A DNA stretch of 61,965 nucleotides, the filler included. It is 12 parts of 12 records of this genome, joined end to end, with 100 filler letters (N's around TTAATTAATTAA, not from the genome) between each part and the next. Parts side by side here need not be neighbours in the genome. Positions count along the whole stretch, not along the records: positions 18,269 to 23,375 come from SRR15195285_8833; 11 more parts are not named here. One strand, given 5' to 3'. The position numbers and the translations under genes were made by a program. The stretch's first letter is position 1. Every line of letters starts with the position of its first letter. Shown one piece after another: positions 2,322 through 34,291 of this stretch. Below the pieces are notes generated by a model. It saw nothing but the letters and a program-made list of their open reading frames with translations. It was not told the DNA's origin and did not search any database.

Positions 2322-4050
2322 TTAGTGCGGCGACGTGCGGATGAGGAAGTTGCCCGCCTTAGTAATCGATCGCACGCCTTTGTACGGCTTCGGCACCGTG
2401 TTGACAATCGTCAGCCCATCAATCTTGACACCGCTGGCAGAGAACCCGGGGACACGAAATTTTGCTTGCACAGTTGGATACGAAGGCGACACTCCGAGTT
2501 TGGCTTGCAAGGAGCCGGAGAGGTGCGGCGTCTTGTTTGGCGGGATCTTGCCAATTCTCCATGTCAGTTGTCGCTTGCCTTCATCCTGGAATGCAACCAG
2601 ACCACCCCGGCAGTCGGCATTCAGGCGCTGCCATGCAACTCAAGCACACACGGTCTGCTTTGTAATGGCATGGCATTGTCATGTCTCACCCAGGTTGTAG
2701 CTCCCAAGCTCACAGTCATCTTCCCGACAGTAATGGATGGGTCAAACGGCACCACAACGAGCACGTCCTCAGGTGGCTTCGGGAGCGTCCCTTTCGGCCC
2801 CTGATGATTGGCACACGCGCAATTGTGTCATTGCCTAGTAGTCGCAGACAGCGCAACTAACACATCGAACGAGAAGTCCAGCGCGCGAGCGGTGTACTCA
2901 TTCGAGCAAAGGCAAGGAGGAAAAAAGAACGAGCGACCACACTGACCACCATAATATCAATATGGCCGGATGCTCCGTTGAAGGAGACTGATGGCTTGAC
3001 ATAAATGGGTAAGTTCAGCCCACAGTCTCTGCAGCAAAGGCCAGAATGTCGCTTTTCAGAGCAAGCACAGTCCGCACACTCCGCACACTACCTGGTACGC
3101 ATGCATCGGGAAAAAGTCACTGGGATCACGCCAGGCAGTTACGCACCGCCCGACAAAGCTGAGCAGTTTGAATTTGCCATCTGGCGGGATGAACGACAGC
3201 TGCTGGTCTGTTTCGAAGCGCTGGTACCGCACACACGGATGGAAGGCACAGTCGTCGAGCTTGTAAGGGTCATCAAACGTCAACGTGCAGTCAGGCATGC
3301 CGGTGAGCCGGCAGTTGCAGTTTATCGTGCCGTTCACGTCGCATGTGATCGCAAATCCGTTGCTGCGACCATATACAGGCAGCTCAACAAGTCAGGCTGG
3401 GCATCAGCACGCGACGCGGCGCAGCTCTACCAATGTGCGGCGGTGTTAGGCGCTCACCAGTCCATCGTGCCATCGATCTCCTCTATGATGTCAAAGAACA
3501 GCTCGTTATTGGAGTACTTGACCCCAGCCTTGCGCCACGGCACATCGGACATTGCGCCACCGGGTAATTCACCAGTGGATTTGCTGGCGCCTTGGCCAGA
3601 GACGGAGATGGCGTCTGCGATGCGGGTCGCGGTGGACTTGGGCTTGACCATCTCCTGCAGGATGTTGAGCTCGGTGATCAGCGGGTAGCCGTTGTCGAGC
3701 ATCTCGTCTAGGACCGAGTAAACAGTCACGAAGTTTTCCTTCATCACGACCTCGTTGACTGGCCCCCCGAAGTAGTCATAGAGCACCTCCACGGTCCGCT
3801 GCAGGAACTCGATCACCATCATGGGCGGCGCCTCTCGATCCAGCGCTGCCAAGAAGAAAAGCTTGTACCGGAAAATGTGGATCAGGTAGCAGTCGGGAGT
3901 GGCAATGACGGGGCAGGTATCCTCCGGCCGGGCCTCCTTGCGCACATGGTCGAAGAACGTCTCACAGACCGCGCGCGGGTGGCGGCGGCGCGAGTGCTTC
4001 TCAATCAGCACATCGCCTTCCTCAGTCATCACGAACAGCGAGTCGATCAT
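2322..4050 (-). CDS. AP3M: AP-3 adaptor complex mu subunit (4 exons)
   Basis: MIDSLFVM..GDVLIEKH, ENFVTVYSVLDEMLDNGYP, VPWRKAGVKYSNNELFFD, FHPCVRY..LSFIPPDGKF, LPIYVKP, SGVKIDGL..KPYKGVRSITKAG. Introns at 3363-3457, ~3029-3146 and ~2802-2946. Confidence 0.92.
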
Positions 4051-4107
4051 CGCTCTCCGGAGAGGAGGTGGCCACCGCACTGCACCACGCACCAGCCCCA
4101 CCGCCGG

Positions 4108-4191
4108 CTCAGCAGCCTCACATCTGCAGCCCACGCCTCCAGCAGCAGCAGCAGCGCCCGCAGCAGCAGCAGCGCCAGCAGCAGTAGCAGC
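4108..4191. repeat. Imperfect (GCA)n microsatellite upstream of the AP3M start
   Basis: agcagcagcagcagcgcccgcagcagcagcagcgccagcagcagtagcagc read directly. Confidence 0.7.
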
Positions 4192-4941
4192 CCCCGGCCG
4201 CCCACGATCGTGCGTGTGGCGCACCGCCACCGGCCGAGCGAGGGACACAATCGACATATACCATTCGGCATGGTATATTCGATATATATGGACACAACCC
4301 CTCAATTGCAACCGCGGGACCAGAATCAAGAATCACACAGTAGGATCCTAGGATTCCTAGTTCATACTAGCTAGGAAGTTCCTACTGTACAATTGTAGCG
4401 TTGATCATAGTACTGTACGAAGATACGATACCCGGGAGGGATCCAAACAGAAACACAAAACAGTCCGGCGCCTGCATCGTGCAAATACGTCGTTCGTGCG
4501 CATTGACTTCCATGAAATGTCGCACAGTACAGTACGAGTACCACTCTAGCTCTAGGTCTAGCGGAGAGTACAGTATTCGAATACATGTCTCGTCATCACG
4601 GATGCGTGTGACATCAGACATGCTCAGATGATCCGAAAAATGCATTTGGCAGCGGCAGCTTGGATTCGTGAAGAACCTTCTGATATACAATATACCACGG
4701 ATCAGCGGAACTGTACCGCGGGCCTTAAAGTTCCTATTCGTCGTGTGGTGCCGGCACGTGTACACACGACGAGGGTGTCGGGCTAGTCTACGTCAGGCAA
4801 ACCAGGATATGGTACAGTGAGACAGCTTCAAAAGTTGTTTTGATTGTGTTTCTGCGAGTGTCGCGTGCTGGCTCCGCGGGCTTTCCTGAGGCCTACTGGA
4901 ACACGTTCGAAGGTTGCGTTCCCCGATGCATTTGCCCGTAG

Positions 4942-7900
4942 TTAGTGGCCCCCACCACCGGACGATCGATACGCAGCGGTATAGATGTACGCGATGTCTG
5001 CGTCCGTAATACCCTACACGGTGGCAGCATGACATGTTCAATCAGGCAGATAGATATCGTGGCGACCTCGTCAAGCAAAAGCAACACATGCAACAGGAAC
5101 GCTAGCTAGAAGAGAGCGTACATTAGCTGGTGAGTCTGCCGAGAACAGCATGACTTCATCAATGTCGCCACGGAATTGCGAGTTGGCATCTGGTTGGCAC
5201 TCGCCAGAAGCATCGTCGACGCGGAAGCAGGTTGTTCGCGCGCCGATCCGCAGATTATCCGGTACCTTGTTCAGGACCATCCGAGCAGCTGGGTCGCCCG
5301 GGCAGGAGCCTGTCTCAGCAAGCATGCCGTTGACGTAGTGCTTCTCGTTGGTGCCGTCGTATTGAACGCCGACATGAGACCACTCGTGCAGGGGCATACG
5401 GATATGTCCCCACCAACGCCAGCAGCCGAAACTACCTTCGTTGTTCGTCCACACGCCGGTGGCTGGATCTTCCGCCCCACCAGAGAACACGCCAGATTGG
5501 AAAGCACCTTGTAGGTTGCCGGTTTGGTCCTGAAGACCCATCTCGTAGCTGCCTTCCTTGTTCATGATAATGCCGCGATCGGCGTCAACATCATAGTTAA
5601 TTGGCCGGATCCATGCAATCATCGTGACGAAGTCGGCCTCCAGAGCACCATTCGCGTCGGTCACTTCCAGGCGGTCATTGCCAACGAAACGGAACGCCTC
5701 ACCGAAAAGACCTGAGACAAACTGCGCATTCACAGCAGTGAGATGCGACTCACTGCCGCTCATGTCCTGGCCAAACTGAGTCACCTGATCAGGGTGAGAC
5801 AGGTCTTGACCATCGCCATCCAGTGGCCAGAACCCGACGAGCACCTTGCCAGATGCTCCTGCGCCCGTAGACCGTTTCAAGGCGTCGACATCAGCCACAC
5901 CGTGCGTCGGCAGTGGATCAGCTCCCGTGCGGTATGCACCCTGGTGAATGTCGGATATTTGCCTTGCTGTCAGAGCTTCAGAAAACAGCATCGCCTCGTC
6001 GATATCGCCAACAAACTGACTCCACGAGCCGGCCTGCGAAACAAAGTTGTCGGCAACGCAGTCCGGGGCACCAGATGCGCCACCGCAGTGCGAGCAGCTG
6101 CTGCAGTCAGCGCGCGCGCCAATCCGCAGCTGCTCGTATGATGCAGCGATGGTGCCAGGGCAGGAGTCGCGCTCCATCTCAATCCCATTTATCCAATGAA
6201 TCTCATCGGTGCCATCGAACGAGACTGCTGTCTGCGTCCAATCGTACAGGCCAAGCTTGACATTGCCCCACCAGCGCCAGCAGCCCGTATCCTTAGCTCC
6301 TTGCATAGCGCCGGTGTTCGACTCCACCCCATACTCGAAGGAGCCCTCTTTGGACATGATTATCCCTCGATCAGCGCAGACTTCGTACTGTGCAGGGCGC
6401 ACGTAGGACATCATGGTAACACCGTTTGTGATGACGGACATAGCATTGGTCGGATCGGTGATGACGAACCCATCGCCGCCGTCGAAGTTCAAAGCAAGAT
6501 TGTACTTGCCAGCCACCCACAGAGGAGCCGGGTCCTGGCCTGTCAGGCCGTGCGGGCCGAGGTCCGTGCCGTCATGGTCCAGCGGCCAGAAGCCTACCAA
6601 CGAGCTTGGTAGTGCACCTACGTTCGGAGTGCCCGGAAGGCGAAGCACGGGCGCGCTACCGTGTCTGGAACGATATTGTAGATTGTAGATGTAATCAACT
6701 TGCTCGGCGGTGATCGCGGTGTTGAATAGCATGGCCTCGTCGATATCGCCCCGCCAGTCGGAGTGGCCGTGCACGCTGTTGACGGTAGACTGCTGTCCAC
6801 CAGTGTAGCGGTTCTGGTCGCGCTGTCCAATGTAAAAGTGATGATCGTTCACACTCAAATCACCACCACCGTTTCTGTCACACGCAGTCTGCTCCACCTG
6901 CACACCTGATACGTAGTGGTACTCTGTGCTACCGTCAAAAGATACTGCTGTGTGGACCCACTCGTGGGCTGGAATGACGATATTGCCCCACCAGCGCCAG
7001 CAGCCACCGTTTGCGTTGTACTGACCCCGATCACCCTGCGTACCAAAAGCGCCCTGCAATGCTCCGTTGCTCGTCTTGACACCGTATTCGTACACATTCT
7101 CTTTGTTCATGATGATTCCATGGTCAGCTTCAAACGTAGCAGCGCCGCCAGTGACCGCGCCGCCCGCCTCTGCCTTGACCCAGGCCGCCATAGTGACTTG
7201 ATTGATCTCCTGTGTCGCCATCACGTCCGCCTGGACCACGATTCCATCAGTTCCGTCGAAGGCAATGGCCAGACCGTACGCGCCTGTCACCCACTGTGGG
7301 TTGGACACAACGCCGTCCAAGCCGTTGCCAGTCGCGTCTGTTGCATCGCCATCCAGCGGCCAGAAGCCCACGAGGGACGGAAGCTCACGAAGCAACTTCG
7401 CCCTGACAGCTGTGTAGGAGTGAGAGTCTGCTGTTGCTGAGGCGCCGTTGCCGTGAAGGCTGTGAGTGTGCTGGACGTTGCGGCCAGTCGCCGCCCCGGT
7501 GCTGCGGTAATGTCCTCTGTAAATGCCGTGGAGCTCACTCTCGCCAAGCGCTCTGTTGAAAACCATGGCCTCATCAATGTCACCGACGAAGTTGCTGTGG
7601 CCCAGATTCCTGCCCGCCGTAGTCTCGCGGTGCCCAATGCGGAAGTCAGCCTGGTTGTTTGGAGTCAGGTCACCTCCAGCACCGCAAGCGGTTGCTTCGA
7701 CCTGGCGAGAAGAGATGAAGTGCGCTTCGTTCGTGCCGTCGTAGGAGACGGCCACATGCGACCACTCGTGCAGAGGGATTCGAATCTCTCCCCACCAGCG
7801 CCAGCAAGGAGAGAATGCTCCCTGCAGAGCACCTGTGTTGTCCGCAAGGCCGAACTCATAGCTGCTCTCCTTGTTCATGATGATGCCACGGTCCGCGCCG

Positions 7901-10900
7901 TAAGCAATGTCATAGGCTTGTGGACGAATCCAGGCAAGCATTGTGGCCGTCGTCAGATCAAGATTCCATTCGCCAGCGGTTGCCTTGTTGCACCGAGTGA
8001 CGCGCAGTGCATCATCGCCATCAAAACGGAACGCCAGGCCAAACAGACCTTTGACCCATTCCTCGTTGTTGGGCTGCGCGTTGTTGCCTGCAGCAAGGTC
8101 CTGGCCGTCACCATCGAGCGGCCAAAAGCCCACGCAACCACCTGGCAGCTGGGCCGGGTTAGGCTCGCCCGCAGCATATACATTTGTCATGCCTCCGCCG
8201 GTTCTGTAGTTGACGTTCTTCAGATTGGTGATTTCTTGGGCGCTGAGAGGACGATTGAACAGCATCGCTTCGTCAACGTCGCCTTGAAATTGACTGGAGT
8301 GGTCGCAGTTCTCTGCACCACCACAAAACGATTCGATGCCACTGCGGGCTCCGATACGAAGAGGCTGCGCGGTATTGGTGATGTCGCCTCCATCTCCGCA
8401 CGGGTCTGTCTCCTGGTTGATGCCGTGTACGTAGTGAATCTCAGAGACACCGTCGTATGCCATTGCAACATGGGTCCACTCGTGAATGGGGATACGCACA
8501 GAGCCGAACCAGCGCCAGCACGGAGAGAAAGCGCCCTGCAGAGCACCCGTGTTGTCCTGAAGGCCCATTTCGTAGCTGCCCTCCTTGTTCATGATGATGC
8601 CTCTGTCGGCATCCTCGGCCAAGTTGTACTCAACTGGTCGAATCCACGCGGACATGGTAGCCCTAGTCAGGTCGAGCTGTGGCACGTAGTTGACAACCAT
8701 GGCGTCATCACCATCGAATCGGAATGCCAAATCATATAGGCCTGCAACCCAGTCTGGGTTCGTGGGAGTACCTCCGAGGTTGTTGCCACTGGCGTCGTCA
8801 CCATCGCCGTCAAGTTGCCAGAAGCCGACAACGCCGGGTGGAAGCATCGCAGCGTTGACAGTGGATGGCGCCCGAATGAACGTAATGCCCTCACCCCCAG
8901 ATGTTGCATCATATGCGCGGTGGTAAATTGAGTAAATCTCGGCCTGGGAGATCGAATCGCTGAAAAGCATCCCCTCGTCGATGTCGCCACGGAACTGGGA
9001 GAAGTCAGCGCCGACTTCGTCGCAGCTCCCGTCCACCTGCCAGCCAGCACTGTCGTCGTGGCACATGCCGCGTGCGCCCAATTTCAGCCCACGAAAGCCC
9101 TGGTCTGCAGGTGTGGGGACCAGATCGCCACCGGGGCACGGGTCATCCTCAACATGCTCACCTGAGATGTAGTGGCTCTCTGTCTGACCGTCGTAGCTCA
9201 CGGCCACATGAGTCCATTCGTGCCCTGGGATTCGAATCGTGCCCCACCAGCGCCAGCACCCACTGTTAAACGCTCCTTGCAGAGCTCCGGTCTGATCCTC
9301 AATACCAAACTCGTACGAACTCTCCTTGTTCATGATGATACCGCGATCACCTGACACGTCGTAGTGAACAGGACGTATCCACGCCATCATGGTGACCTTG
9401 GATAATTCCAGAATCGGATTCTCAGGAACACGGAGCTCGTCATCTCCATCGAAACGGAATGCCTGGTTGTACATGCCCGCAACCCACTCGCCATTGGATG
9501 GCGTTGCGTCGAGGCCCTGGCCTGACAAATCGCTGCCATCGCCATCAAGCGCCCAGTATCCGATCAAGCTTGATGGTAGTGAAGCCTGCGTTGTGCAACT
9601 GCGGCCCGCTGTGCACCACGCTTGCGTGCTACCACTGTGGCGCCGGATGACAATATCATCGAGATACGTCGTTTCACAGAACTGCTGGAAGCCCTCGAAC
9701 ATGAAACGAACCTGCGAGATCGGCTCGTTCTCGTCGCCATGGACGTGGGTGTCGGTGATTGGAAAGATGTACTCGACTAGATGCCAGTGATCTGGGTCGA
9801 TGACAGTCTGTGTGTGTACGCCCTCGCCGCCGTTGTACCCACTGTCCGAAGTGGCAGACCACACGTGGTTGCCTGCAAAGCCATCCGCGAAGCCTTGCCA
9901 CGCGTTGCCCTTGGTCCTGAATGAGACCGAGCATGGAAACTGTGGCGTACACATGAAAGTATCGATGCTGAAGGCATCGCCGCCGCTTCCGCATCCTTGA
10001 ATCGAGAGCACACGACCCTGGTCAGGGTCCGTTGCAAGCACAGCTGTCTGCGGAGCATTCGGCGGCCCGCCTTGACCCACCCAGCCGCGCGGGGCCATGC
10101 CATCTGGAATCGAACCGTCTTCGAAGTTGGTGCTGAACAGGATATCGATGTTGGCGTTCGCACGTCGATTGATGCCCGCAGCGGCTTCGTCCGACCCGGA
10201 GAAGCGGGTGACCACAATATCATCCACGTAAGTCGCCACACAGTCTGCGTCAAACCCTTCAAACATAATGTGCACGTTCGAAATACCTGCGGTGTTGTCC
10301 CCGTGGATGAAAGTGTCAGTATCCACGGGGAACACGTAGTCCACATGGTGCCAGTTTCCGGTGTCGTGGACTGTCTGGACATGGACTCCGACGCCCCCGT
10401 TGTAGTCGGGAGTCGGCGTTGCAGTCCAAATGTGATTGTCAGGGTATCCAGACGAGAAGCCTTGCCACGCACGGCCCTTGATGTAATACGAAACGCGGCA
10501 CTTGTTCGTCGGGCTACATTCGAACGTCTGGGTCGAGAAGGCGTCGCCACCACTCGCACAATCGTTCATCGTGAGCACCATGCCGTGATCACCACCTGGG
10601 TCCTCCATGACGAGCGCCGACTCCGGCCTTGTGTGCTCGCCCTGGCCATGCCAGCCTCCGCTCCCGGACTCGAAGTCGTCCGCAAACAGAACTTCGTTCG
10701 GCTGGTACGCCGCATTGATCGCGGCGGCCTGCTCCGGCGAACCAGTGTAGCGCCGGATCACGATGTCATCGAAAGCAGTCGCCGAGCAGTCGAAATCGAA
10801 GCCCTCAAGCATAAAGTGCGTATTGGTGATAGGGACGGTGTAATCGTTCTCCTGGTAGTTCGCGGTGCCGGTCGGGAAGACGTACTCCACGTCGTGCCAG

Positions 10901-11588
10901 CTTCCAGTATCGTGTGCGGTCTGGACGTGCTGGCTCTCGCCGCTGGTGCCGCCACGCCAGTCGGTAGGCGTCGCCGTCCAGATGTGGTTATCGGGGAATG
11001 CGGAGCTGAAGCCCTGCCAGCCGCGGCCTTTCATCCGGTACGAAACGAGGCATGGAGACGCCGCGGAGCACTCGAAGGCGTCCACAGAGTAGGCGTCACC
11101 CCCCCCCCTATGCAGTCGTGGATCTGAAGGACGTGGCCACCGTCCGGGTCGGAGTCAAGGGTGGCGGTCGCTGGGGTGGCACCGGACGGCCCCCGCCACT
11201 TGCCAAAGCCGCCTTCGAAGTCGTCCTGGAACAGGATATCCGACGCATCCTGGCTCGCCGGGTGGCACAGGCTCTGGAATTGCACGTACTCGGCGTGATT
11301 GGCATCGGTGACGATCATCGCCTGGCAGCGCGAATAGAAGCTCTCAAAGACCGGCTGGCACTCCGCAGAGCACTGGCTCGGCACGGGTCCTTGGCAGAAC
11401 TCAAAGTTGGACCCACAGCAGTGCTGGCTGATCGGCTGCATCTCGGCCATCATGCTGTTGCACGCGCCTGCGGCCTGCAGCCGCCGCGCCCCGACCGTGC
11501 TGTTGGCGCCCGCGACCGGCTGCCACGCCTGAGGCAGCGCGCTCGCATCAGCGAGAAGTGCCGCGGACACCATCGCGCGCACAAGCAT
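4942..11588 (-). CDS. Large secreted protein: signal peptide, Cys-rich domain, 3 CBM-like repeats and 6 LamG/concanavalin-A-like repeats; frameshift in G10 tract at 11099-11108; last intron 5014-5121
   Basis: MLVRAMVSAALLADASA signal, then RRLQ. Three LFxDDFE..GGDAFS..WQGF..FEGFD repeats. Six GxWxLDGDG..TMxAWIRP..WxHVAVSYDG..FxGDIDEAMLF repeats. Spliced last exon GITDADIAYIYTAAYRSSGGGGH* completes repeat 6. Confidence 0.85.
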
Positions 11589-11864: not shown

Positions 11865-11964
11865 NNNNNNNNNNNNNNNNNNNNNNNNNNNNNNNNNNNN
11901 NNNNNNNNTTAATTAATTAANNNNNNNNNNNNNNNNNNNNNNNNNNNNNNNNNNNNNNNNNNNN
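11865..11964. other. Artificial contig-joining spacer
   Basis: N44-TTAATTAATTAA-N44, with stops in all six frames. Confidence 0.98.
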
Positions 11965-16718: not shown

Positions 16719-18168
16719 TCAGGGTCTTTCGTAGCACCTCTGGTCGCCGGTTGTCACACACTGCCCGTTCACAATCGTAGAGTAATTCACGTTTGTGGTT
16801 GCGTGAAACGTCCAGCACGTTCCGCCGCAGCTGATGGGCTCACCGAGGCACCCATTGACTTCGATGGCGACGCAATCGTCCATTTCGTTGCACGTCGCTT
16901 CACAGCCCGTGCGAGTGGAAAAACCATGGCTCCGCGCTTCCAATGGATCTAGCTCTCCCCGGCAACAGCCGTCGAAGAGATACGTATATGTTCTTGGATG
17001 CGGCTGGGGCTGTGGTTCCGGCTCTGGTTGTGGTTCTGAGTAGGTAGCTGCTGCGTTGCGTTGCTGTCCGCGCGATGGGCGCCACTCTCGCGCGGTGACC
17101 GGCGGAGCTTCAAAATCCAGCGGGGCAAACAAGGCCGCACGCTGTCTGTCGCTCGGTCCACACTCGATGGCATCGTAATGTGGTAGCTGTTCCAGTCCTG
17201 CTGCGTTGTCGGGTGACGGTAGGTTATGCGCGGCAAAGTGCGGGCACACAAACCCGACTCGATTAGTCGTCCAACCATTGCCGCGGTTTGAAATGCTGCC
17301 GTTGCCAACAATGCTGATGTTTTGCGCGTCAGATGCCCATCCGATCAAGGCCTGATCACTTCTTTCTGGCTGCCACGCTGTAGTAGAGCTGCTGTAGTCG
17401 CGAGGGATCCGCGATGGAATCCCGTGGATTTCTCCATGTATAACCAGCCGAGTGTTTGACGAGAGGTTGAACGCAGAAGTACGGTAGCGACCGGTCGGCA
17501 CCACAATCTCTCCTCCCAGCTGGGTCTGAGCGCTAGCGTTGAGGAAAGCTGCTGAGCTGTCTGTGACACCGTCTGGCACGGCTCCAAGCGCAACAACATC
17601 GACCCATGTGAATAGCATCGGCTCCACAAACACGTAACCCGCGACTGGCAGTGGCTTTAGGTCCGTGCCGTCCGGCAGAGTGACTCCAATGGCAAGGTTG
17701 TCGCCGCCTCCCGCCTCGTTCACGATGCCGCGCACGTAGTAGAACTTGCCTGCTTCCAAGTGCTGTGGCGACGAAACTTGTGACGAGTACTTGTTCCACT
17801 GTCTTCGTGCTGCCCAACCAGGCACGGTGGCAATGACTGGAGCCTCCGCCTCGGTCGGCCCAAAGTGGAGTGCTGCCCCATCGTCCGCTGCGATGTAGAA
17901 CGTGTACAGACCGGTCAAGGGAGCCTTGAACCACCCCCAGAGTTCGGATGCACAGTAATTACTGCAGAAGCACGATGCCTGTCAGGGAAAAGCGACACTC
18001 AAAATGCCAATGGTCTCGAGCAGCACAGCGCACCATATGTTGGTCGGGGTCTCGCACAAATCTATCAGTACCTCCTCGTAGTCTGGGCTCTCCACCTGAT
18101 AATCTGGATCGGCATAGATGTGCTCTACACTGTTCCCGCGACATACGGTACATGTATTGAATTTCGCT
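16719..18168 (-). CDS. 5'-truncated PA14-domain protein with a GH28/pectate-lyase-3-like N-terminal motif and a Cys-rich (apple-like) C-terminus
   Basis: Spliced LWGWFKAPLTGLYTFYIAADDGAAL..LEAGKFYY..NEAGGGDNLAIG (PA14). DVVALGAVPDGVTDSSAAF..IVVPTGRYRTSAFNLSSNTRLVIHG..NISIVGNGSI. Confidence 0.65.
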
Positions 18169-18268
18169 NNNNNNNNNNNNNNNNNNNNNNNNNNNNNNNN
18201 NNNNNNNNNNNNTTAATTAATTAANNNNNNNNNNNNNNNNNNNNNNNNNNNNNNNNNNNNNNNNNNNN
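18169..18268. other. Artificial contig-joining spacer
   Basis: N44-TTAATTAATTAA-N44. Confidence 0.98.
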
Positions 18269-18316
18269 CCCCCCCCCTCTCGCCACCACCTAAAATCGCT
18301 TCCGTCGTCCGTGCAG

Positions 18317-20287
18317 GTCAAGGGCGCAGCGAAGAAGGAGACGCTGCCTGGCGTGGAAGCGCCGGCTCCGATCGGCCCGGACGGCAAGGCCGCACCGCAG
18401 AGCCAGGGTCCGATGCGCCCGAACTTCCCCAATCCGCTGGTCTCGCCCGACGACCTCGACGCGCTTGACTTCACGCCAGACATCGAGGCCACCCTCGGCT
18501 TCGTCTGCAACACTGTGCGCCGTACGCGTGAGCTGCTCAGCGAGGCCGGAAAGGTCGACGTTGCCGTGATCGGCTTCACCGGTGGCCCGTGGACGCTCAT
18601 GACCTACATGGTTGGCGAAATGAGCGGCGGCGGGGGTGGAGTGTTTGCCAAGGCGAAGAAGTGGCTCTACAGCTACCCTGAGGCCTCGAAGCGGCTGCTG
18701 GACGGGATCTCGGACGTCTGCGCGGCGTTCTTGATCGCGCAGGCCAACGCCGGGGCGCACATGGTGCAGGTGTTCGACTCGTGGGCCGGGGCCCTCTCCC
18801 CGTCAGACTTTGAGAAGTGGGAGCTGCCAGCGCTGCGCCGCATTGCCGAGACTTTCAAAGCGGCTTGCCCCGACAAACCGATCATCATTATGCCCAAGGG
18901 AGCGCACCACTGCCTCGAGGCACTGGCTGCCGTGGAGGCCATCGATGTCATCGGTCTGGACTGGACCGTGCCTCCGTCTGCAGTGCGAAGCGAACATGCG
19001 AGCCCAGCGCTGCAGGCCCAGTGCGTACAGGGCAACATAGACCCAGCGTTTTTGATGTCGGAGCCCGCAGCAATCGAGTCGGCCGTCAACGAGATGATTG
19101 AAGGCTTCGTGACAAAGGCCGGCAAAGGCTACATCGCCAATGTAGGCAACGGCCTGCTCACAACGACTCCTGTGGAAGGTGTGGCTGCTATGGTCAACGC
19201 GGTGCAGCGATGGCGCCCCGCGGGACAGGAAGTGCTCCGTATAGGCACGCGTGCGTCTGCCCTAGCGCTTGTGCAAGCGCGCTGGTGTGCCCGGCGACTA
19301 AAGGCCCAGCACCCGGAACTCTCCATTGAGATTGTAGAGATCAAGGCTCTCGGAGACAAAGTGCAGAACAAAGCGCTTCACGAAATCAGCGCTTCTGTCG
19401 AGGCCCCGCAGGCAGAACAGGGGGCAGCAGCCACCTCATCGACAGCCGTGACGGCTACCGGTGGTGCCCTGTTCACGAAGGAACTTGAGGAGGCCCTGCT
19501 TGCAGGCAGTGTTGATCTGCTGGTAAACTGCGTGAAGGATATGGAAACCCGGCAGCCTGCGGGGTTGGAGCTAGCTGTGTATTGTACTCGCGGGGACCCT
19601 CGCGACGTAGTTGTAATGGCACCGATGCATGCAGACAAAGGATGGACCACCTTGGCCGACTTGCCAGCTGGCTCTGTTGTCGGCACATCGTCCATGCGCC
19701 GGACTGCGATATTAAAGCGCTACCACCCAACCCTCTCGATCGAGGTGGTGCGCGGAAACGTACAGACTCGCCTGGCAAAGCTCGACGCGAAGGGCGAGTG
19801 GCCGCAAAAGTACGACGCGTTGATTCTAGCAGAGGTTGGCTTGGAGCGGATGGGTTATCCCGAGCGCATCTCCTCAGTGCTCGAGCCAGACGTGTTTCCG
19901 TACGCGGTCGGCCAAGGCTCTCTGGGACTGGAGATTCGTGAAGATGATGAACGCATTCGGGGACTGGTGAGCTTCCTGGATGATGTTAATGCGCGGGCTG
20001 AATGCGTTGCGGAGCGTTCGTTCTTGCGCAGTCTAGCTGGCGGCTGCCGCGTACCTGTGGGTGTCCACTGCGTGTCGTCGACGGACCCAGCAGGTGCTGT
20101 AACTGTAACGCTCAAGGGTCGTGTATGGGCGACAGACGGCTCAGTTGAATACAGTGCAGACGCCTCCGGGGCTCCCGCTGACGCTACAACAATTGGCGAG
20201 ACCGTCGCTACGGCGGTGAAGACACAGGCTGGTGCGTCAGCCCCATTCCTTCAAGACATCGCGCATTGCGCGCGGCGTTTGGTTTAG
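18317..20287 (+). CDS. hemE-hemC: Fused uroporphyrinogen decarboxylase (HemE/UROD, 5'-truncated) and porphobilinogen deaminase (HemC/HMBS)
   Basis: UROD: VIGFTGGPWTLMTYMV, AKKWLY, AGAHMVQVFDSWAG, GLDW, VQGNIDP, YIANVGNG. HMBS: LRIGTRASALA, LFTKELEEALL, VGTSSMRR, RGNVQTRLAKL, YAVGQG, AERSFLRSLAGGCRVPVG. One uninterrupted ORF after a GTGCAG acceptor. Confidence 0.92.
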   Translation, partial: VKGAAKKETLPGVEAPAPIGPDGKAAPQSQGPMRPNFPNPLVSPDDLDALDFTPDIEATLGFVCNTVRRTRELLSEAGKVDVAVIGFTGGPWTLMTYMVGEMSGGGGGVFAKAKKWLYSYPEASKRLLDGISDVCAAFLIAQANAGAHMVQVFDSWAGALSPSDFEKWELPALRRIAETFKAACPDKPIIIMPKGAHHCLEALAAVEAIDVIGLDWTVPPSAVRSEHASPALQAQCVQGNIDPAFLMSEPAAIESAVNEMIEGFVTKAGKGYIANVGNGLLTTTPVEGVAAMVNAVQRWRPAGQEVLRIGTRASALALVQARWCARRLKAQHPELSIEIVEIKALGDKVQNKALHEISASVEAPQAEQGAAATSSTAVTATGGALFTKELEEALLAGSVDLLVNCVKDMETRQPAGLELAVYCTRGDPRDVVVMAPMHADKGWTTLADLPAGSVVGTSSMRRTAILKRYHPTLSIEVVRGNVQTRLAKLDAKGEWPQKYDALILAEVGLERMGYPERISSVLEPDVFPYAVGQGSLGLEIREDDERIRGLVSFLDDVNARAECVAERSFLRSLAGGCRVPVGVHCVSSTDPAGAVTVTLKGRVWATDGSVEYSADASGAPADATTIGETVATAVKTQAGASAPFLQDIAHCARRLV

Positions 20288-20618: not shown

Positions 20619-23158
20619 TTACAGACTTGGCCCAGCCAGGATCTCGGCGCCGCCGATCAAGTCATCGACTACTTGCGGCTCAGCAAGAGTTGAGGTGTCT
20701 CCAAGGTCCCCGCGGTCGCCACCAACAAGCACCTTGAAGGCCTCTGGATCTGCAATCTTGCGTAGAATGCGGCGCATGATCTTGCCGCTGCGGGTCTTTG
20801 GTAGGGCTGGTGCCCACTGGATTGTGTCTGGAACAGCAAATCGTCCAACGTTCGCTGTGACTGACGCCTCGAGCTCTTTCTTCAGTTCGTCCGTCCCCAC
20901 AACGCCATCGTTTAGTGTGACGTAGGCATAGATTGCATTGCCCTTGATGGCATGTGGGAATCCAACCACCGCTGCCTCAGCCACTGATCCGTGCTCAACG
21001 CAGGCAGACTCGACCTCAGCGGTACCGATGTTGTGGCCACTCACAACGAGCACGTCGTCAGTGCGTCCGGTCACCCAGTAGTAGCCGTCTTCGTCGCGTG
21101 TGGAACCGTCACCGGCGCAGTAATAGCCGTCGAACTGCGAGAAGTAGACCGATTCGTAGCGATCCTGGCCGTCTTCGCCCCAGAGTCCTCTCATCATCCC
21201 CGGCCATGGGGCTTTGACGCACAGGTGGCCAGAGACACCGTTGCCAGCAAGCTCGATAGGTGCGAGGTCCGGCTCACCGACCCCGTCGGCGTCGAGTGTG
21301 GAAGGGTCGAGCAAGCAGGGATCCACACCGTAGAAGGGGAACGTCGCAGATCCAGGTTTGAGCTCCCATTTGTGAGGTTGCGGCGTGAGCATGATACCAC
21401 CTGTCTCGGTCTGCCACCATGTGTCGACAATCGGGCAGTTGCCTTTGCCGACGATCTCATGGTACCAACGCCATGCCTCTGGGTTGATTGGCTCGCCGAC
21501 ACTGCCCAGGACGCGCAGGGAGCTGAGGTCGAATTCGAGGACGGGCTCATCTCCAAAACGCATGAGTGCCCTGAGAGCAGTCGGGGCTGTGTAGAGCTGA
21601 GTGACCTGGTGCTTGTCGACGATTTCCCAGAGGCGCGTGTTGGTCGGGTGGTTGGGCACACCCTCGAAGACGATCTGAGTAGCACCGCAGAGCAGCGGGC
21701 CGTATGCGATGTAAGTGTGCCCTGTGATCCACCCGCAATCTGCGGTGCACCAGTAGACATCTCCAGGCTGGTAGTCAAAGACCGTTTGGAATGTGGACGC
21801 GGCGTAAACCATGTATCCCCCAGTCGTATGAAGAACACCTTTCGGTGTGCCTGTGCTGCCGCTTGTGTACAGCATGAACAGCGGGTCTTCGGCGTCCATC
21901 CACTCCACGTCACAGTCGGCGCTTGCTGTGCTCATCTCGGCTGCCCACGAGAGATCGCGGCCTGCTTCCATCGGGACACCCTCGGCGGGCATTCCGGACG
22001 GCTTGCGCTCGTACACGATGCATTTCTCGATTCGGTTGCCTTCGGCAGCGGCGAGTGCCATGGCATCGTCGGCGATCGATTTAAGCTCGACGAACTTCGT
22101 GGCACGCATGACCCCGTCCGCTGTGACGAGAATCTTCGAGCCGGAGTGAACGATGCGCTGAGCCAGAGCCTCAGCGCTGAATCCTCCGAAAACGACGGAG
22201 TGCATTGCGCCGATGCGGGCACACGCCAGCATAGAGATCGGAAGCTCGAGAATCATCGGCATGTACACCGCCACACGGTCGCCCTTGCCGATCCCGTGGC
22301 TCTTCAGCACGTTCGCAAATTTACACTGCGGTAATTCGGACGCCACACCGCGATAATTCAGCGCGGATCCACGAAACTGGAGACATTGCACCGGGTAAAT
22401 GGGCGGAGGCTCGAAATGAGATGCAGACGCACCACTTGAGCATGGAGCTCTCCCCAAGTGAGCGTGGTCGTTTCGCGGTCGTTGCCTTCGTAGATCATGC
22501 ACGGCTCGTCTTTCTTGGTGGCGAGGTGGCGGTCGATGGCGTTGTAGCAGATCTGCGGGTCAGTACATCAAGACGGTCTGAGATGCAGATAGGTGCGACA
22601 GCTGCGACACGAGAACGCAGCGTGGCGCACGTTCGTCACGCCGCCCTCGAACCAGCGACAGAAGATCTTGCCCTTAGAGCGGTGAAAGTTGTAGTCCATG
22701 ACCTTGCCGCTCCATGGCTCTTTCCACTCGAAGTCCCTGCGCGTACACACGTGGAGCGCAGGTGAGCTTCCGCGCCGACAATCTGTGCAGTCCGCTATCG
22801 CGACCGGTCGAGCAGGCGCGAGTGCGGGAGTGAGAGGGCGTACTTGGCGCGCTCCCCCCAGTACCCCTCCGGGTCGCTGATCGACTTGGTCCATCTGCAC
22901 AGCAAGCAACCAACACGCAGAGCGCCTCTCTCAGCAACGCCCCACGCAACGCGAGCGTATATACGGGCGTCCAGCGCAGCGACGGTCGTTCGCTTCCCGA
23001 TCAAACCCGCACACCCATCTATGCCTCTATGCGTTAAGACACGGCCGACCACACACCCCAGTCCGCTCTATCGGACTGACCACGCCAGCCCCCTCCCATG
23101 CCCCTCCCCTCCCATGCATGCCATGTCCCATCGCTTACTCTTCCTGGTAGGCCTCCAT
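20619..23158 (-). CDS. acs: Acetyl-CoA synthetase (acetate-CoA ligase), about 5 exons; start uncertain
   Basis: Spliced [93 protein letters not shown]. Confidence 0.93.
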
Positions 23159-23375: not shown

Positions 23376-23475
23376 NNNNNNNNNNNNNNNNNNNNNNNNN
23401 NNNNNNNNNNNNNNNNNNNTTAATTAATTAANNNNNNNNNNNNNNNNNNNNNNNNNNNNNNNNNNNNNNNNNNNN
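23376..23475. other. Artificial contig-joining spacer
   Basis: N44-TTAATTAATTAA-N44. Confidence 0.98.
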
Positions 23476-30533: not shown

Positions 30534-33500
30534 ATGATGATGGCCAGTGGTACTAGTACACCAGTGGAAGCCGCAGCGTATCATGGCGACGTCGCGGCGG
30601 CGCTGCTCCACTGGTACGATCGGGACACCGGCTGCTGGCTGGCGCAGCACCGGCTCCGTCGTGATTGGAGCGGCTGGGACCTAGCTGACGGGTCGGCCGT
30701 AGCTCGGGCAACGCTGGACTGTGGCACACGGCCATGGAACGCTGACTTTGACGCAAACGGCGCGCCGTTATACCGTTGGTTCGTCGGTGGGCTTACGAAC
30801 GCCGCGTTCTCGGAGTGTGACCGTCACATTCTCGCCGGTCACGGAGACCGTACAGCGTTCATCGTCGATCCACCGGTGCTGCAGGAGTCTGCGACGCCAT
30901 GCCACTGCTCCTACCGTGACTTGCTACTCGAAAGCAGCCTCGCTGCAGCGAGCATTCGCGGCTTGGTAAGACACTGTCTGGAAGATCAAGTCTTATATTG
31001 TCTCTTATATTGTCTCCCGTCGCCGCCGCCGAATTTAGCATTATAGATCTAGTAGGCGGTACACTAAGGCTTTGCACCCGCGTTTGGCAGGGCGTGAGCC
31101 AGGGTGCTCGCCTTGTGCTAATTGGCGGCAACTCCCTTGATGTCATATGTTGGGTACAAGCTGCGAAGCGCCTCGGTGTGGTCTACTCGTGTCTGCCTGA
31201 GAACGCAGCGGTAGATGCTGCTGTAACGAGAGTGCGCTCGTTGGGTGCTGCACTCGTGTACGTGAGCCAGGGTGGTATTGGAGGTGGAGGCAGCTCGAAG
31301 CGGTTGATATCTGCGTTGCGGAAGCATGCGATTGTTGTCTCTGGGGGGCGCCTCAACATCGGCCCAAGTCTAGGAGGGCGGCAGAACGAGAGCTCGTCCC
31401 CACCTGGCTGCGAAGACGCGGCAGCGCTACGAAACCGGGCTCTGTCCACACATCCGGCGGTAGAGGGCTTGCGCTCTCTTGTGCCGCAGGAATTCATCCG
31501 TGCAATATGGGCTGATGTGGCTCCTGTTCCACTGGAAGCAAACACGCCACTCTTCATCGCATTTACGTCAGGTAGCACTGGAGAACCAAAGGGTCTCGTT
31601 CACTGCCACGGTGCGGTGGCGGGGATTTGCGACACACTCTCCTTCACGTTCGGCGTGCTGGCACCGCAATTTGGTCCTAACGCTCTGCATGGGGAGCAAC
31701 AAGAGGACGTTGCGTTGGTCGTAGCAACACCAGCCTGGATTACTGGACAGAGCTATATGATTTCTGCCTGTTTGATGGCCGGTATTTCATCGGTACTGCT
31801 TGAAGGCTCACCAGTTGCACCCCAGCCTACCCGCTTTGCACGTGTAATCGAGCGATACCGAGTCACGGTCTTCAAAGCAGGCTCAACGTTTCTACGGCAG
31901 GTGATGTCAGACCCACGGAGCATCGAAGAGCTACAACGATGTGATCTTTCGTCATTGCGGGCGGCCTCGTTTTGTGCGGAACCAGTTTCGCCGACAGTGC
32001 ACGCATTTGCAGTGGAGAATATTTGCCGGCACTACGTTAACTCGTACTGGGCCTCAGAGCACGGAGGGATCGTATTCACACGTCCCTACCAAAGGCTGCC
32101 AGCGACTGAAGAGGGAGCTAAAAGGTCGCCTTCTCCTCCTCCCCCCGATGCCAGATGCTCCCCTCTCCCGTGGCTCAGTGCCAAGGTGATGGTAGCCGAG
32201 CAGGGAAAACCATCGCTGCGTGACGCTCTTGCTGGCGAACGTGGCGAGATTGTCCTTAACCTGGAAGAGCATGCATTCCCGACACTAGCCAGGACACTGT
32301 GGGGAGATAAGGACCAGTTTGATAAGGGCTCAAAGCACTGGCGAGGCAATTTCAAGGCGTGGCAAACCACATATTTCCGTAATGTGGTGACAGCAGATGG
32401 AGCTGAAATGTTTGTGTTCGTCCAAGGTGACCACGCAGAACAGCATTCAGATGGGTCGTTCAGTTTTCACGGAAGGTCGGACGATGTCATGAATGTCGGT
32501 GGTGTGCGAATTGGCACTGGCGAAGTGGAGGCTGCGTTATTCAAACACAAGCAGATACACAAGGCGCATTCTGCCCTCGGAAACTGTGTTGTCGTTGGGG
32601 CTCCCGATCCAATCAAAGGCGAGGTACCCGTCTGCTTCTGCGTGGCGGCACCAGGCTGCACAATTGATGCTGAGGTTCAGGCGGAGCTGCAGAGTCTGGC
32701 AATGACTACCATCGGAACACCACTGGCAGCCCCGGCGTGGTTCGCACAGGTGAACGCACTGCCTCAGACACGCACAGGCAAATACCTAAGGCGTCTCCTG
32801 CGTGATATAGTTGTCAGCAGCTCAGATCTCAGCAGTGAGTCTACTAGATCGAGTGATCAAGTTGGAGAAAGGGATGGTGGTGTTTGTCCGGATTGGAAGG
32901 TAGCAGATGATGGGGCACTATGCAATCCTGAGAGTTTGGAAGAGGCGAGAGCAGCTGTCGCTTCGATTCGAGCTGTACAAGCCATGCGGCGACGCAGCTC
33001 AAGCTGTTCGTACCCGCAGGAGAATGAAAGTGAGGAGTTGTACAGGATGGTGCTGTCACTGGCGAGCGAAGCAGTCACTTGGGACTCATCTGCAGGTAGC
33101 AACACCGTCAGCATTGACACTATTGACGATCCCTCAAAGCATCCAGACAACGAAGCATTTGAACCTAAGGTCGAGAAAGTTGAGCTGGACACAACAGTGA
33201 CGCTAATGCATCTGGGATTTGATTCAATGCGGCTGGTGATGTTCCGTGACGCTTTGCTGCGCGTTATTCAACCGCAAGGAGTCACCGCACCCACGCTCTT
33301 CTCGCAACTGTTTGGGGAGGGAAGTCTTGAAGCTGCACCTTTAAACACTGTCATTGCTGAAATTGGGGCAGCGTTCAGACATGCAGGCAAGCAGTACAAG
33401 CCGCAGGGCCGTGGTAACGAGACTGGAGACGGCAGCAGCATCGACACTCAGGTCCGGCCGCGACGGCGCAAAAAGGGTGCAGCGACGATTCTCGAGCGGG

Positions 33501-34291
33501 ACAGCCGCAAGCCTGTGGAAGGGGCCCACGGTGGGCTATCACCAGTTGGGGGGTTAGAGGCGTGCTTTCGCGGTGATCTGGCTACAGCGCGCCGTCTAGC
33601 TGCAGATCAATGGCACCCACAGCACGCAGTGTGTCAACAAGGGAGCACGGCAATGATGTGGGCGGCCTCTGGTGGCCATCTTGAGGTGCTCGACTGGCTA
33701 GTGACAGACTGCGGTTGCGATATCAACACGCGCAATAAGGTGGGACGAACAGCGTCGATGTTTGCCGCGAAGTATGGCCATCACGAATGCCTTCGCTGGC
33801 TCATTTCCACCGCTGCTGCTGACATCTCCCTCCGTGCTGAGGATGACTCAGGAGTTTTCGACTGGGCGGTCTTCGGGGGTGACTTGTTGACGTTGCAGAC
33901 TGCTGCGGAAATACTTCCACCGGCGGAGCTACACGCCGCAAATCGTTTTGGTTGCACCGCTATCCACTGGGCAGCATCGGGAGGGAGTGTGGCAGTATTG
34001 CGCTGGCTGTACGAGCACGGGCTAGACTTCAGCGTGATTAATGATGCCGGACATGGGTGCGTGCAGAAGGCAGCGTGGAGAGGTCATCAGGAAGCGTTGC
34101 AATGGCTGATGCTCGACCAGGATGGACCACGATTGCTTTGGCAGCTTCAGCCGCTTGTCGGCAATGACAGACCGGTGGCTCGGGGCGCAACTCTCGATGA
34201 GCTCGGTGCGCGAACGCTGGAGTCGATACTTCAAGAGAGTGGGTGTTCCAGTGTTCGTGACTGGGGCACAATGGAATGCCAACGACGCTAG
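30534..34291 (+). CDS. Pcs-type acyl-CoA synthetase/adenylation domain + carrier (ACP/PCP) domain + ankyrin repeats; intron 30966-31090
   Basis: YRWFVGGLTNAAFSECDRH, FTSGSTGEPKG, WITGQSYMI, FKAGSTFLR, FCAEP, NSYWASEHGG, GRSDD, LPQTRTGKYLRR. Carrier motif LMHLGFDSM. Ankyrin motifs GSTAMMWAASGGH, GRTASMFAAKYGH, GCTAIHWAASGG. Confidence 0.85.

Follow-up and report, generated by a model that had tools for sequence, protein, structure and literature searches.

Does one protist gene encode two enzymes of heme biosynthesis that do not act one after the other? The question arises from a reading frame on the plus strand of a DNA stretch of 61,965 nt (the window), in which uroporphyrinogen decarboxylase (UROD, HemE) appears to be followed at once by hydroxymethylbilane synthase (HMBS, HemC). 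The window consists of 12 contigs of about 3-12 kb, parted by 11 identical artificial spacers (N44-TTAATTAATTAA-N44), so that adjacency across any spacer is biologically meaningless; the spacers (for example 11865-11964, 18169-18268 and 23376-23475, with eight others) also add stops to all six frames. The frame in question lies on the contig at 18269-23375. Our results indicate that this frame is probably a 3' exon belonging to a marine protist's nuclear gene, which would encode one UROD-HMBS polypeptide of about 770 aa.

The reading frame, its junction and its missing 5' end

The stop-to-stop open reading frame (ORF) at 18221..20287 (+) opens within the N spacer, with genuine sequence from 18270, and translation of 18272-20284 gave a protein of 671 aa (P0001). 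The frame was free of stops across 18317-20284. Pfam URO-D (PF01208) matched residues 50-314 (profile positions 93-346 of 346, 242.4 bits against a cut-off of 23.9), Porphobil_deam (PF01379) matched residues 322-563 (1-206 of 207, 224.1 bits) and Porphobil_deamC (PF03900) matched residues 577-648 (3-71 of 74, 51.2 bits), all of them with E-values far beyond chance (Table 1). The presence of the three matches in one frame bears out the in-frame HemE-HemC fusion proposed in an earlier sequence-only reading of this DNA, and the extent of the Porphobil_deam match, together with the C-terminal domain, agrees with its claim that HMBS is complete. The polypeptide would carry UROD (heme step 5) at the N-terminal side, then about seven residues, then the complete HMBS (heme step 3).

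The C-terminal helix of UROD was followed in the same frame, within 10 residues, by the LRIGTR strand of HMBS. This was so in 14/14 aligned fused proteins, in which the junction had the identical position and the distance from the UROD helix to the HMBS (L)R(I)GTR strand was 0-10 residues. In the blastoclad group, the junction alignment showed a trimmed UROD C-terminus and UROD and HMBS domains that directly abut. The linker string singled out by the sequence-only reading, AVQRWRPAGQEVLRIGTR, corresponds to residues 310-327 (19199-19252).

The stretch was found, at least partly, in 19 of the 21 public runs listed (14 studies), the runs being marine or seawater metagenomes. Two contigs bridged the junction, one from DNA (X1 record 1, covering 18269-19749) and one from an RNA library (X12 record 6, covering 19067-19464 with zero differences), so that mapping across the junction, suggested earlier as a check, spoke for the fusion. 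The DNA contig reaches 427 nt further upstream than the contig in the window. Inside the ORF, nine single-base differences were detected between the runs and the window, eight of them synonymous at the third position and one changing Val to Met. Four were in the UROD half, all synonymous, and five in the HMBS half, four of them synonymous. After 20247, the DNA run X1 had an extra C, and the tail of the public protein P0407 was frame-shifted to match. The C-terminal tail of the window protein, FLQDIAHCARRLV, resembles the C-terminal helix of human HMBS, and for this reason the frame of the window was taken as the intact one.

The first 92 positions of the URO-D profile were absent from the window, as the sequence-only reading had noticed in reporting a missing 5' end, because the contig begins at 18270, straight after the artificial spacer; full-length relatives matched the profile from 2 to 345. 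The start that it gave, 18317, is the first base past a CAG splice acceptor at 18314-18316. Recovery of the upstream sequence was possible through P0407 (801 aa, 99.7% identical to the window protein across 659 residues), which supplied the missing exon, the UROD N-terminus. In this protein an ordinary UROD N-terminus ending in ...VEMVP, aligned to human residues 19-102, is followed by 34 codons (VSRSF...PPPPPPSPHHLKSLPSSVQ) and then by VKGAAKK, the first residues after 18317. Since the 34-codon stretch is missing from the relatives P0278, P0006 and P0007, opens with a GTN codon and, in the gene model P0342, puts the downstream reading out of frame, it seems to be a short in-frame intron that gene callers had read through. 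Metatranscriptome-library contigs X12 record 3 and X15 record 9 ran through 18271-18316 with no splice joint; this could reflect intron retention, unspliced RNA or DNA carry-over, and it decides neither for nor against the intron. When the window was searched by tblastn with full-length relatives, the missing exon 1 was not found in it. A candidate at 3940-4038 (36% over 33 aa), inside a 292-aa ORF (3457-4332, minus strand) with no other UROD likeness, was rejected as a chance match.

Active sites, fold and competing explanations

The best solved match of the UROD half was human UROD (3e-69) and that of the HMBS half was human HMBS (4e-60), in each case ahead of the bacterial and plant enzymes. 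In trees, both halves fell among chytrid and animal-type sequences, apart from a clade of plant and bacterial ones. The cytosolic eukaryotic type that had been attributed to both halves was upheld by these matches and by the tree placement. P0407 begins with a Met eight residues ahead of the UROD core and has no presequence; because it is nearly identical to the window protein, we infer that the fused protein would be cytosolic.

The available text of PMC3510221 gives Arg37, Arg41, Phe55, Ser85, Asp86, Tyr164, Ser219 and His339 as substrate-binding or catalytic residues of human UROD. Alignment to human UROD (1r3q) showed that Phe154, Tyr164 and Ser219 were kept in the window, while Arg37, Arg41, Phe55, Ser85 and Asp86 fall on the missing exon and were kept in exon 1 of P0407. 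Seven of the eight listed residues were thus kept, five of these being seen only in the near-identical P0407, and His339 was replaced by Asn (NVGNGL, 19139-19156). For HMBS, the roles of cofactor, catalytic and substrate-site residues were taken from the available part of PMC7959689, and 16 of the 17 residues checked against human HMBS (7ccx) were kept. Kept residues, in human numbering, were Arg26, Ser28, Gln34, Lys98, Asp99, Thr145, Ser146, Ser147, Arg149 and Arg150, and also Arg167, Asn169, Arg173, Arg195, Gly218 and the cofactor cysteine Cys261; Gln217 was kept as well. Both activities would presumably be retained in the fusion.

With an alignment of 107 rows as input, AlphaFold2 gave a model of P0278, a full-length relative at 81% identity. 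Mean pLDDT was 86.5 and pTM 0.84, the linker blocks had pLDDT values of 96 and 94, and confidence was low only at the termini and in two clade-specific inserts, of which the one of about 30 aa in UROD had a pLDDT of 59-70. In Foldseek comparisons, the UROD half of P0278, a TIM-barrel, matched human UROD with TMt 0.90-0.91 (rmsd 2.0-2.9), and the HMBS half matched human and E. coli HMBS with TMt 0.88-0.94. Among the solved chains found by Foldseek none spanned both halves (best TMq 0.40). The high pTM hints that UROD and HMBS may be held in a fixed mutual orientation.

Judged by these sequence and contig data, the locus is likely to be an expressed bifunctional UROD-HMBS gene. Several observations weigh against it. 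The position of His339, a substrate-binding residue in human UROD according to the available text of PMC3510221, is Asn throughout the clade of the window, called here picozoan-like (see below), and this clade also has Cys (NCVKDM at 19526-19543) in place of Ser96 of HMBS, a residue that contacts both substrate and cofactor. The RNA evidence consists of assembled metatranscriptome contigs that may contain DNA, two of which also cover the presumed intron. The DNA run X1 is possibly the source of the window itself and hence not independent, the whole gene is spanned by no single record, and exon 1 comes from another record, P0407, and not from the window.

The substitution in UROD raises the possibility that the fusion is real but that the UROD half of this clade is weakened or altered, serving mainly to dimerise or scaffold HMBS while another UROD carries out the decarboxylation. 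The change of His339 to Asn is limited to the picozoan-like clade; in the alignment, each of the 11 fused lineages outside it has His. The low-confidence insert of 30 aa belongs to this clade as well. Single histidine-to-asparagine mutants of human UROD retain activity. We consider a weakened UROD unlikely, because the eight other residues named above, from Arg37 to Ser219, are all kept and the variants of the UROD half (4/4) are synonymous. Moreover, the best 150 representatives of the exhaustive search described below included no stand-alone UROD of at least 300 aa at >50% identity, the short matches of high identity being fragments of 118-254 aa.

It is very unlikely that the precursor is cleaved at the junction, or that the HMBS half is translated separately, which would give two ordinary enzymes and leave the fusion to couple only their expression. 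A short linker whose length varies among lineages (0-10 residues) would suit such a process, and the evidence is at the level of DNA, RNA and sequence, not on the protein itself. Nevertheless, the linker was modelled as ordered within a chain of high overall pTM, unlike an exposed cleavage loop, and in the blastoclad proteins, with their trimmed UROD C-terminus and abutting domains, no cleavage site is left.

An artefact, be it a metagenome contig that is chimeric or a pair of neighbouring genes that a sequencing error in a stop codon makes look like one, is hardly credible: the window is indeed made of short metagenome contigs artificially joined, and the picozoan single-cell assembly holds a plainly chimeric gene model (P0342, acetyl-CoA synthetase joined to UROD), but the seven residues between the Pfam domains leave no space for a terminator, promoter or start, the junction is shared by 14/14 fused proteins, whose assemblies are independent and whose taxa are distant, contigs of separate runs bridge it, and there is synonymous variation on both of its sides, so that this explanation is effectively refuted already and the fusion is not an assembly artefact.

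Finally, a trifunctional gene with HemD or CPOX on the missing 5' exon or exons is extremely improbable, since, although CPOX-UROD-HMBS proteins exist (P0131 and P0275; Coprogen_oxidas 4e-99) and blastoclad proteins bear a degenerate CPOX-like N-terminus, only eight residues part the Met of P0407 from the UROD core, the extra N-terminal residues of P0278 and P0007 number just 16-45 and hold no domain, and the HemD domain PF02602 (HEM4) was found on none of the proteins with URO-D and Porphobil_deam (0/7 in the word-indexed search, 0/9 in the Pfam scan). The idea that the 5' exons might encode HemD, put forward in the sequence-only reading, was contradicted by P0407, P0278, P0006 and P0007, which all start directly with the UROD N-terminus; at 99.7% identity, P0407 shows a plain UROD N-terminus where HemD had been suggested.

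Relatives, novelty and origin of the fusion

A word-indexed search of 5.8 billion proteins gave 119 hits, of which seven had URO-D and Porphobil_deam, six being relatives 60-92% identical and one a protein of Thecamonas trahens (39%). In an exhaustive search of 1.84 billion representatives, 12 of the best 150 were matched by BLAST in both halves, and Pfam found both domains in nine of ten representatives scanned, the tenth being a GluTR-HMBS fusion. Named carriers were Thecamonas trahens, the choanoflagellate Barroeca monosierra and the blastoclad fungi Blastocladiella britannica and Coelomomyces lativittatus. Both domains in one polypeptide, for which a proteome search had been advised, are thus present in several distant eukaryotes.

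The Thecamonas trahens protein annotated as uroporphyrinogen decarboxylase (P0008, 682 aa), that of Barroeca monosierra (EP01147_P002257; P0122, 713 aa) and marine and metagenome clusters have the domain order and junction of the window, with both domains complete. Entries of the Thecamonas/Barroeca type were 38-39% identical to the window protein over about 600 residues; they differ from it in keeping His339 and Ser96, in lacking its two clade-specific inserts and in coming from Obazoa, whereas the nearest named relative of the window is a picozoan assembly. The UROD-HMBS core and the junction were also found in P0131 and P0275 (968 and 976 aa, from AT-rich coding sequence), which have in addition an intact N-terminal CPOX, and in the proteins of Blastocladiella britannica (KAI9219916.1; P0125, 970 aa) and Coelomomyces lativittatus (KAJ1507812.1; P0129, 883 aa). 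The N-terminal region of 250-310 aa of the blastoclad proteins is a degenerate CPOX (29.1 and 26.6 bits against a cut-off of 31.8) with a YRGIGGI remnant. The picozoan-like clade has no CPOX domain, unlike P0131, P0275 and the blastoclads. The N-terminal regions of P0133 and P0135 had no match.

Stand-alone human UROD (1r3q, 1uro) and human HMBS (7ccx, 3ecr) were about 37-38% identical per half (TMt 0.88-0.91) and share most of the active-site residues with the window, but in human they are two separate genes and proteins. Bacterial fusions such as HemC-HemD, CobA-HemD-HemC (about 800 aa, in Lachnospiraceae and others) and HemH-HemQ likewise hold tetrapyrrole enzymes in one chain (Table 3 of PMC4921024 and PMC13564367, in the portions available). 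Among the word-indexed hits, HemC-HemD and CobA-HemD-HemC, the fusion types known to the sequence-only reading, were indeed the common ones. These bacterial fusions bring together consecutive steps with an unstable shared intermediate such as hydroxymethylbilane, whereas UROD-HMBS jumps the UROS step. Other UROD fusions were also observed, namely P0106 (a cluster of nine, 652-654 aa) with URO-D and HEM4 (HemE-HemD), which groups with bacterial-type sequences in the UROD tree, and P0120 (747 aa), a fusion of URO-D and ferrochelatase.

The fusions of tetrapyrrole enzymes known to us join consecutive steps. The UROD-HMBS fusion joins steps 3 and 5 (in some relatives 6, 5 and 3), always without step 4 (UROS), and the same junction recurs across a picozoan-like protist, an apusomonad, a choanoflagellate and blastoclad fungi. 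It is only in joining non-adjacent steps that it is unusual among such fusions. When enzymes of one pathway occur fused, this serves as a predictor of their physical or functional coupling, and the UROD-HMBS fusion makes testable a long-standing question, whether the cytosolic heme enzymes form a complex. If a single origin were shown, the fusion might also serve as a rare genomic character bearing on deep relationships among eukaryotes.

A full-text search of open papers (main texts, without supplementary tables) returned no description of a natural UROD-HMBS fusion, and none was present in the available portions of PMC4921024, PMC13564367, PMC4870792, PMC10624901, PMC8599508 and PMC11528492. 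Among the literature covered, in the parts available, were a survey of metabolic gene fusions from 2016, a review of heme biosynthesis from 2026 and a paper on picozoan single-cell genomics. In its available text, the review mentions HemH-HemQ as the sole fusion and reports no evidence for a complex of the cytosolic heme enzymes, and the picozoan paper analyses hemB, D, E, F, H, Y and ALAS, with hemC unlisted and the fusion unmentioned in the text available. The claim that the fusion appears undescribed thus held for the literature searched and failed for the databases, since entries with this architecture already stand in NCBI, UniRef and EukProt. The carriers there (Thecamonas, Barroeca, Blastocladiella, Coelomomyces and a picozoan assembly) are labelled only as UROD or as HMBS. 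The gene is real, conserved and probably bifunctional; it is recorded in databases yet seems to lack a description in print. Its novelty is limited by its presence in public databases and by the canonical nature of both enzymes, with no sign of new chemistry.

In quick maximum-likelihood trees, fused sequences fell among eukaryotic cytosolic-type enzymes, on backbones that were poorly supported. The UROD tree omitted 31 near-duplicate picozoan-like fused rows and rows with <200 aligned residues, and the HMBS tree took 66 of the 213 unfused rows. The label "fused" changed 4 times on the UROD tree and 5 times on the HMBS tree, against 12.9 and 14.0 with shuffled labels; well-supported (starred) branches forced only 2 and 1 changes, respectively, one of the 2 in UROD being due to P0205, a fragment running past the junction. 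Two sub-groups were recovered with either half: one is the picozoan-like clade, and the other unites the two blastoclads with P0133 and P0135. A looser grouping of Thecamonas, Barroeca and P0128 likewise appeared in the two trees. A single fused clade was not rejected by the approximately unbiased (AU) test for UROD (p 0.595, the constrained tree being 2.6 lnL better; 16 against 38 rows), nor for HMBS (p 0.156, 23.5 lnL worse; 15 against 34 rows), the latter on a subset of 49 of 81 rows, reached by leaving out 32 unfused rows that were for the most part bacterial-type or redundant eukaryotic sequences.

This pattern may reflect one ancient fusion followed by many fissions or losses, a number of parallel fusions, or transfer between eukaryotes. 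It is rather unlikely that one fusion, ancestrally perhaps CPOX-UROD-HMBS, arose near the eukaryote root, before Obazoa (whose carriers are apusomonads, choanoflagellates and blastoclad fungi) split from Picozoa (Diaphoretickes), and is the relic of a cytosolic heme metabolon with UROS docking. If true, lineages with separate genes, animals included, would still assemble the same complex non-covalently.

Proposed working, host and neighbouring genes

Where UROS is lacking, hydroxymethylbilane, the product of HMBS, cyclises by itself to uroporphyrinogen I. Both the I and III isomers are decarboxylated by UROD, and coproporphyrinogen I is a dead end. Human UROD bound to coproporphyrinogen-I and -III appeared in PDB titles among the fold matches. 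Since the HMBS product self-cyclises to the I isomer and UROD accepts it, a direct hand-over from HMBS to UROD would be harmful, which makes simple channelling unlikely. The usual channelling rationale is also not directly applicable to UROD-HMBS because the UROS step is skipped. Human UROD is a stable homodimer according to the available text of PMC3510221, and by analogy the fusion is probably dimeric too, with two HMBS modules on the dimer. The benefit may rather lie in expressing two cytosolic enzymes at a 1:1 ratio and with shared stability, which is likelier than channelling, and the dimeric fusion might also be a docking platform for a separate UROS. Step 4 would presumably be left to UROS as a separate protein. 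The longer CPOX-UROD-HMBS relatives cover steps 6, 5 and 3, and no fused protein seen had a UROS domain, which argues that the omission of UROS is systematic and not accidental.

The host is probably a picozoan, a marine protist. The gene adjoining the fusion gene, in convergent orientation, encodes acetyl-CoA synthetase (20622-22567, minus strand) and is 93% identical to P0342, which bears the EukProt label Picozoa sp. COSAG02 and also contains UROD exon 1. The whole of a further EukProt protein, P0402, is contained without a mismatch in the ORF of the window. Other contigs in the window encode actin, kinases, ankyrin, IBR and EF-hand proteins, pointing to a eukaryotic context. On account of this context and of the P0342 and P0402 matches, the organism was called picozoan-like, a Picozoa label that rests on a single-cell co-assembly. 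Save for the one EukProt hit, the acetyl-CoA synthetase was uninformative on the taxon.

Table 1. Features of the UROD-HMBS locus, in window coordinates.
Feature	Position	Strand	Basis or remark
Artificial contig-join spacer, N44 + TTAATTAATTAA + N44	18169..18268	.	Non-biological; marks the 5' end of the contig of the gene
3' part of presumed short intron, poly-C run then ...GTGCAG	18270..18316	+	Sequence; contig breaks inside the intron
UROD (HemE) part, from about human UROD residue 103 to the C-terminus	18317..19213	+	Pfam URO-D 8.7e-72 (match 18419-19213); alignment to 1r3q
Clade-specific insert in UROD, about 32 aa	18317-18412	+	Alignment to human UROD 1r3q
Junction RPAGQEV, 7 residues, last UROD helix to first HMBS strand	19214..19234	+	Pfam bounds
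HMBS (HemC) domains 1-2	19235..19960	+	Porphobil_deam 1.8e-66; alignment to human HMBS 7ccx
Clade-specific insert in HMBS	19388-19465	+	Alignment to human HMBS 7ccx
HMBS C-terminal domain	20000..20215	+	Porphobil_deamC 1.6e-13
Cofactor-attachment cysteine (human Cys261) in AGGCRVP	20036-20056	+	Alignment to 7ccx
TAG stop of the fused ORF	20285..20287	+	ORF scan, sequence

The stop codons of the fusion and acetyl-CoA synthetase genes are about 330 nt apart, and the latter gene is interrupted close to its 5' end by one or more introns. Beyond close relatives, its best named hits were bacterial (Planctomycetota, Desulfarculus; about 60% identity), and the gene could be bacterial in origin. Three further frames were observed on other contigs of the window. 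One of 2027 aa (5074-11154, minus strand) has about ten repeats of a module of about 190 aa with the motifs WVAG.Y..AF.FDG.D and GIIMNKE.S.E.G. Another, of 420 aa (16722-17981, minus strand), has a GLEYA/PA14-like domain, and the third, of 1123 aa (30920-34288, plus strand), encodes an AMP-binding enzyme with C-terminal ankyrin repeats.

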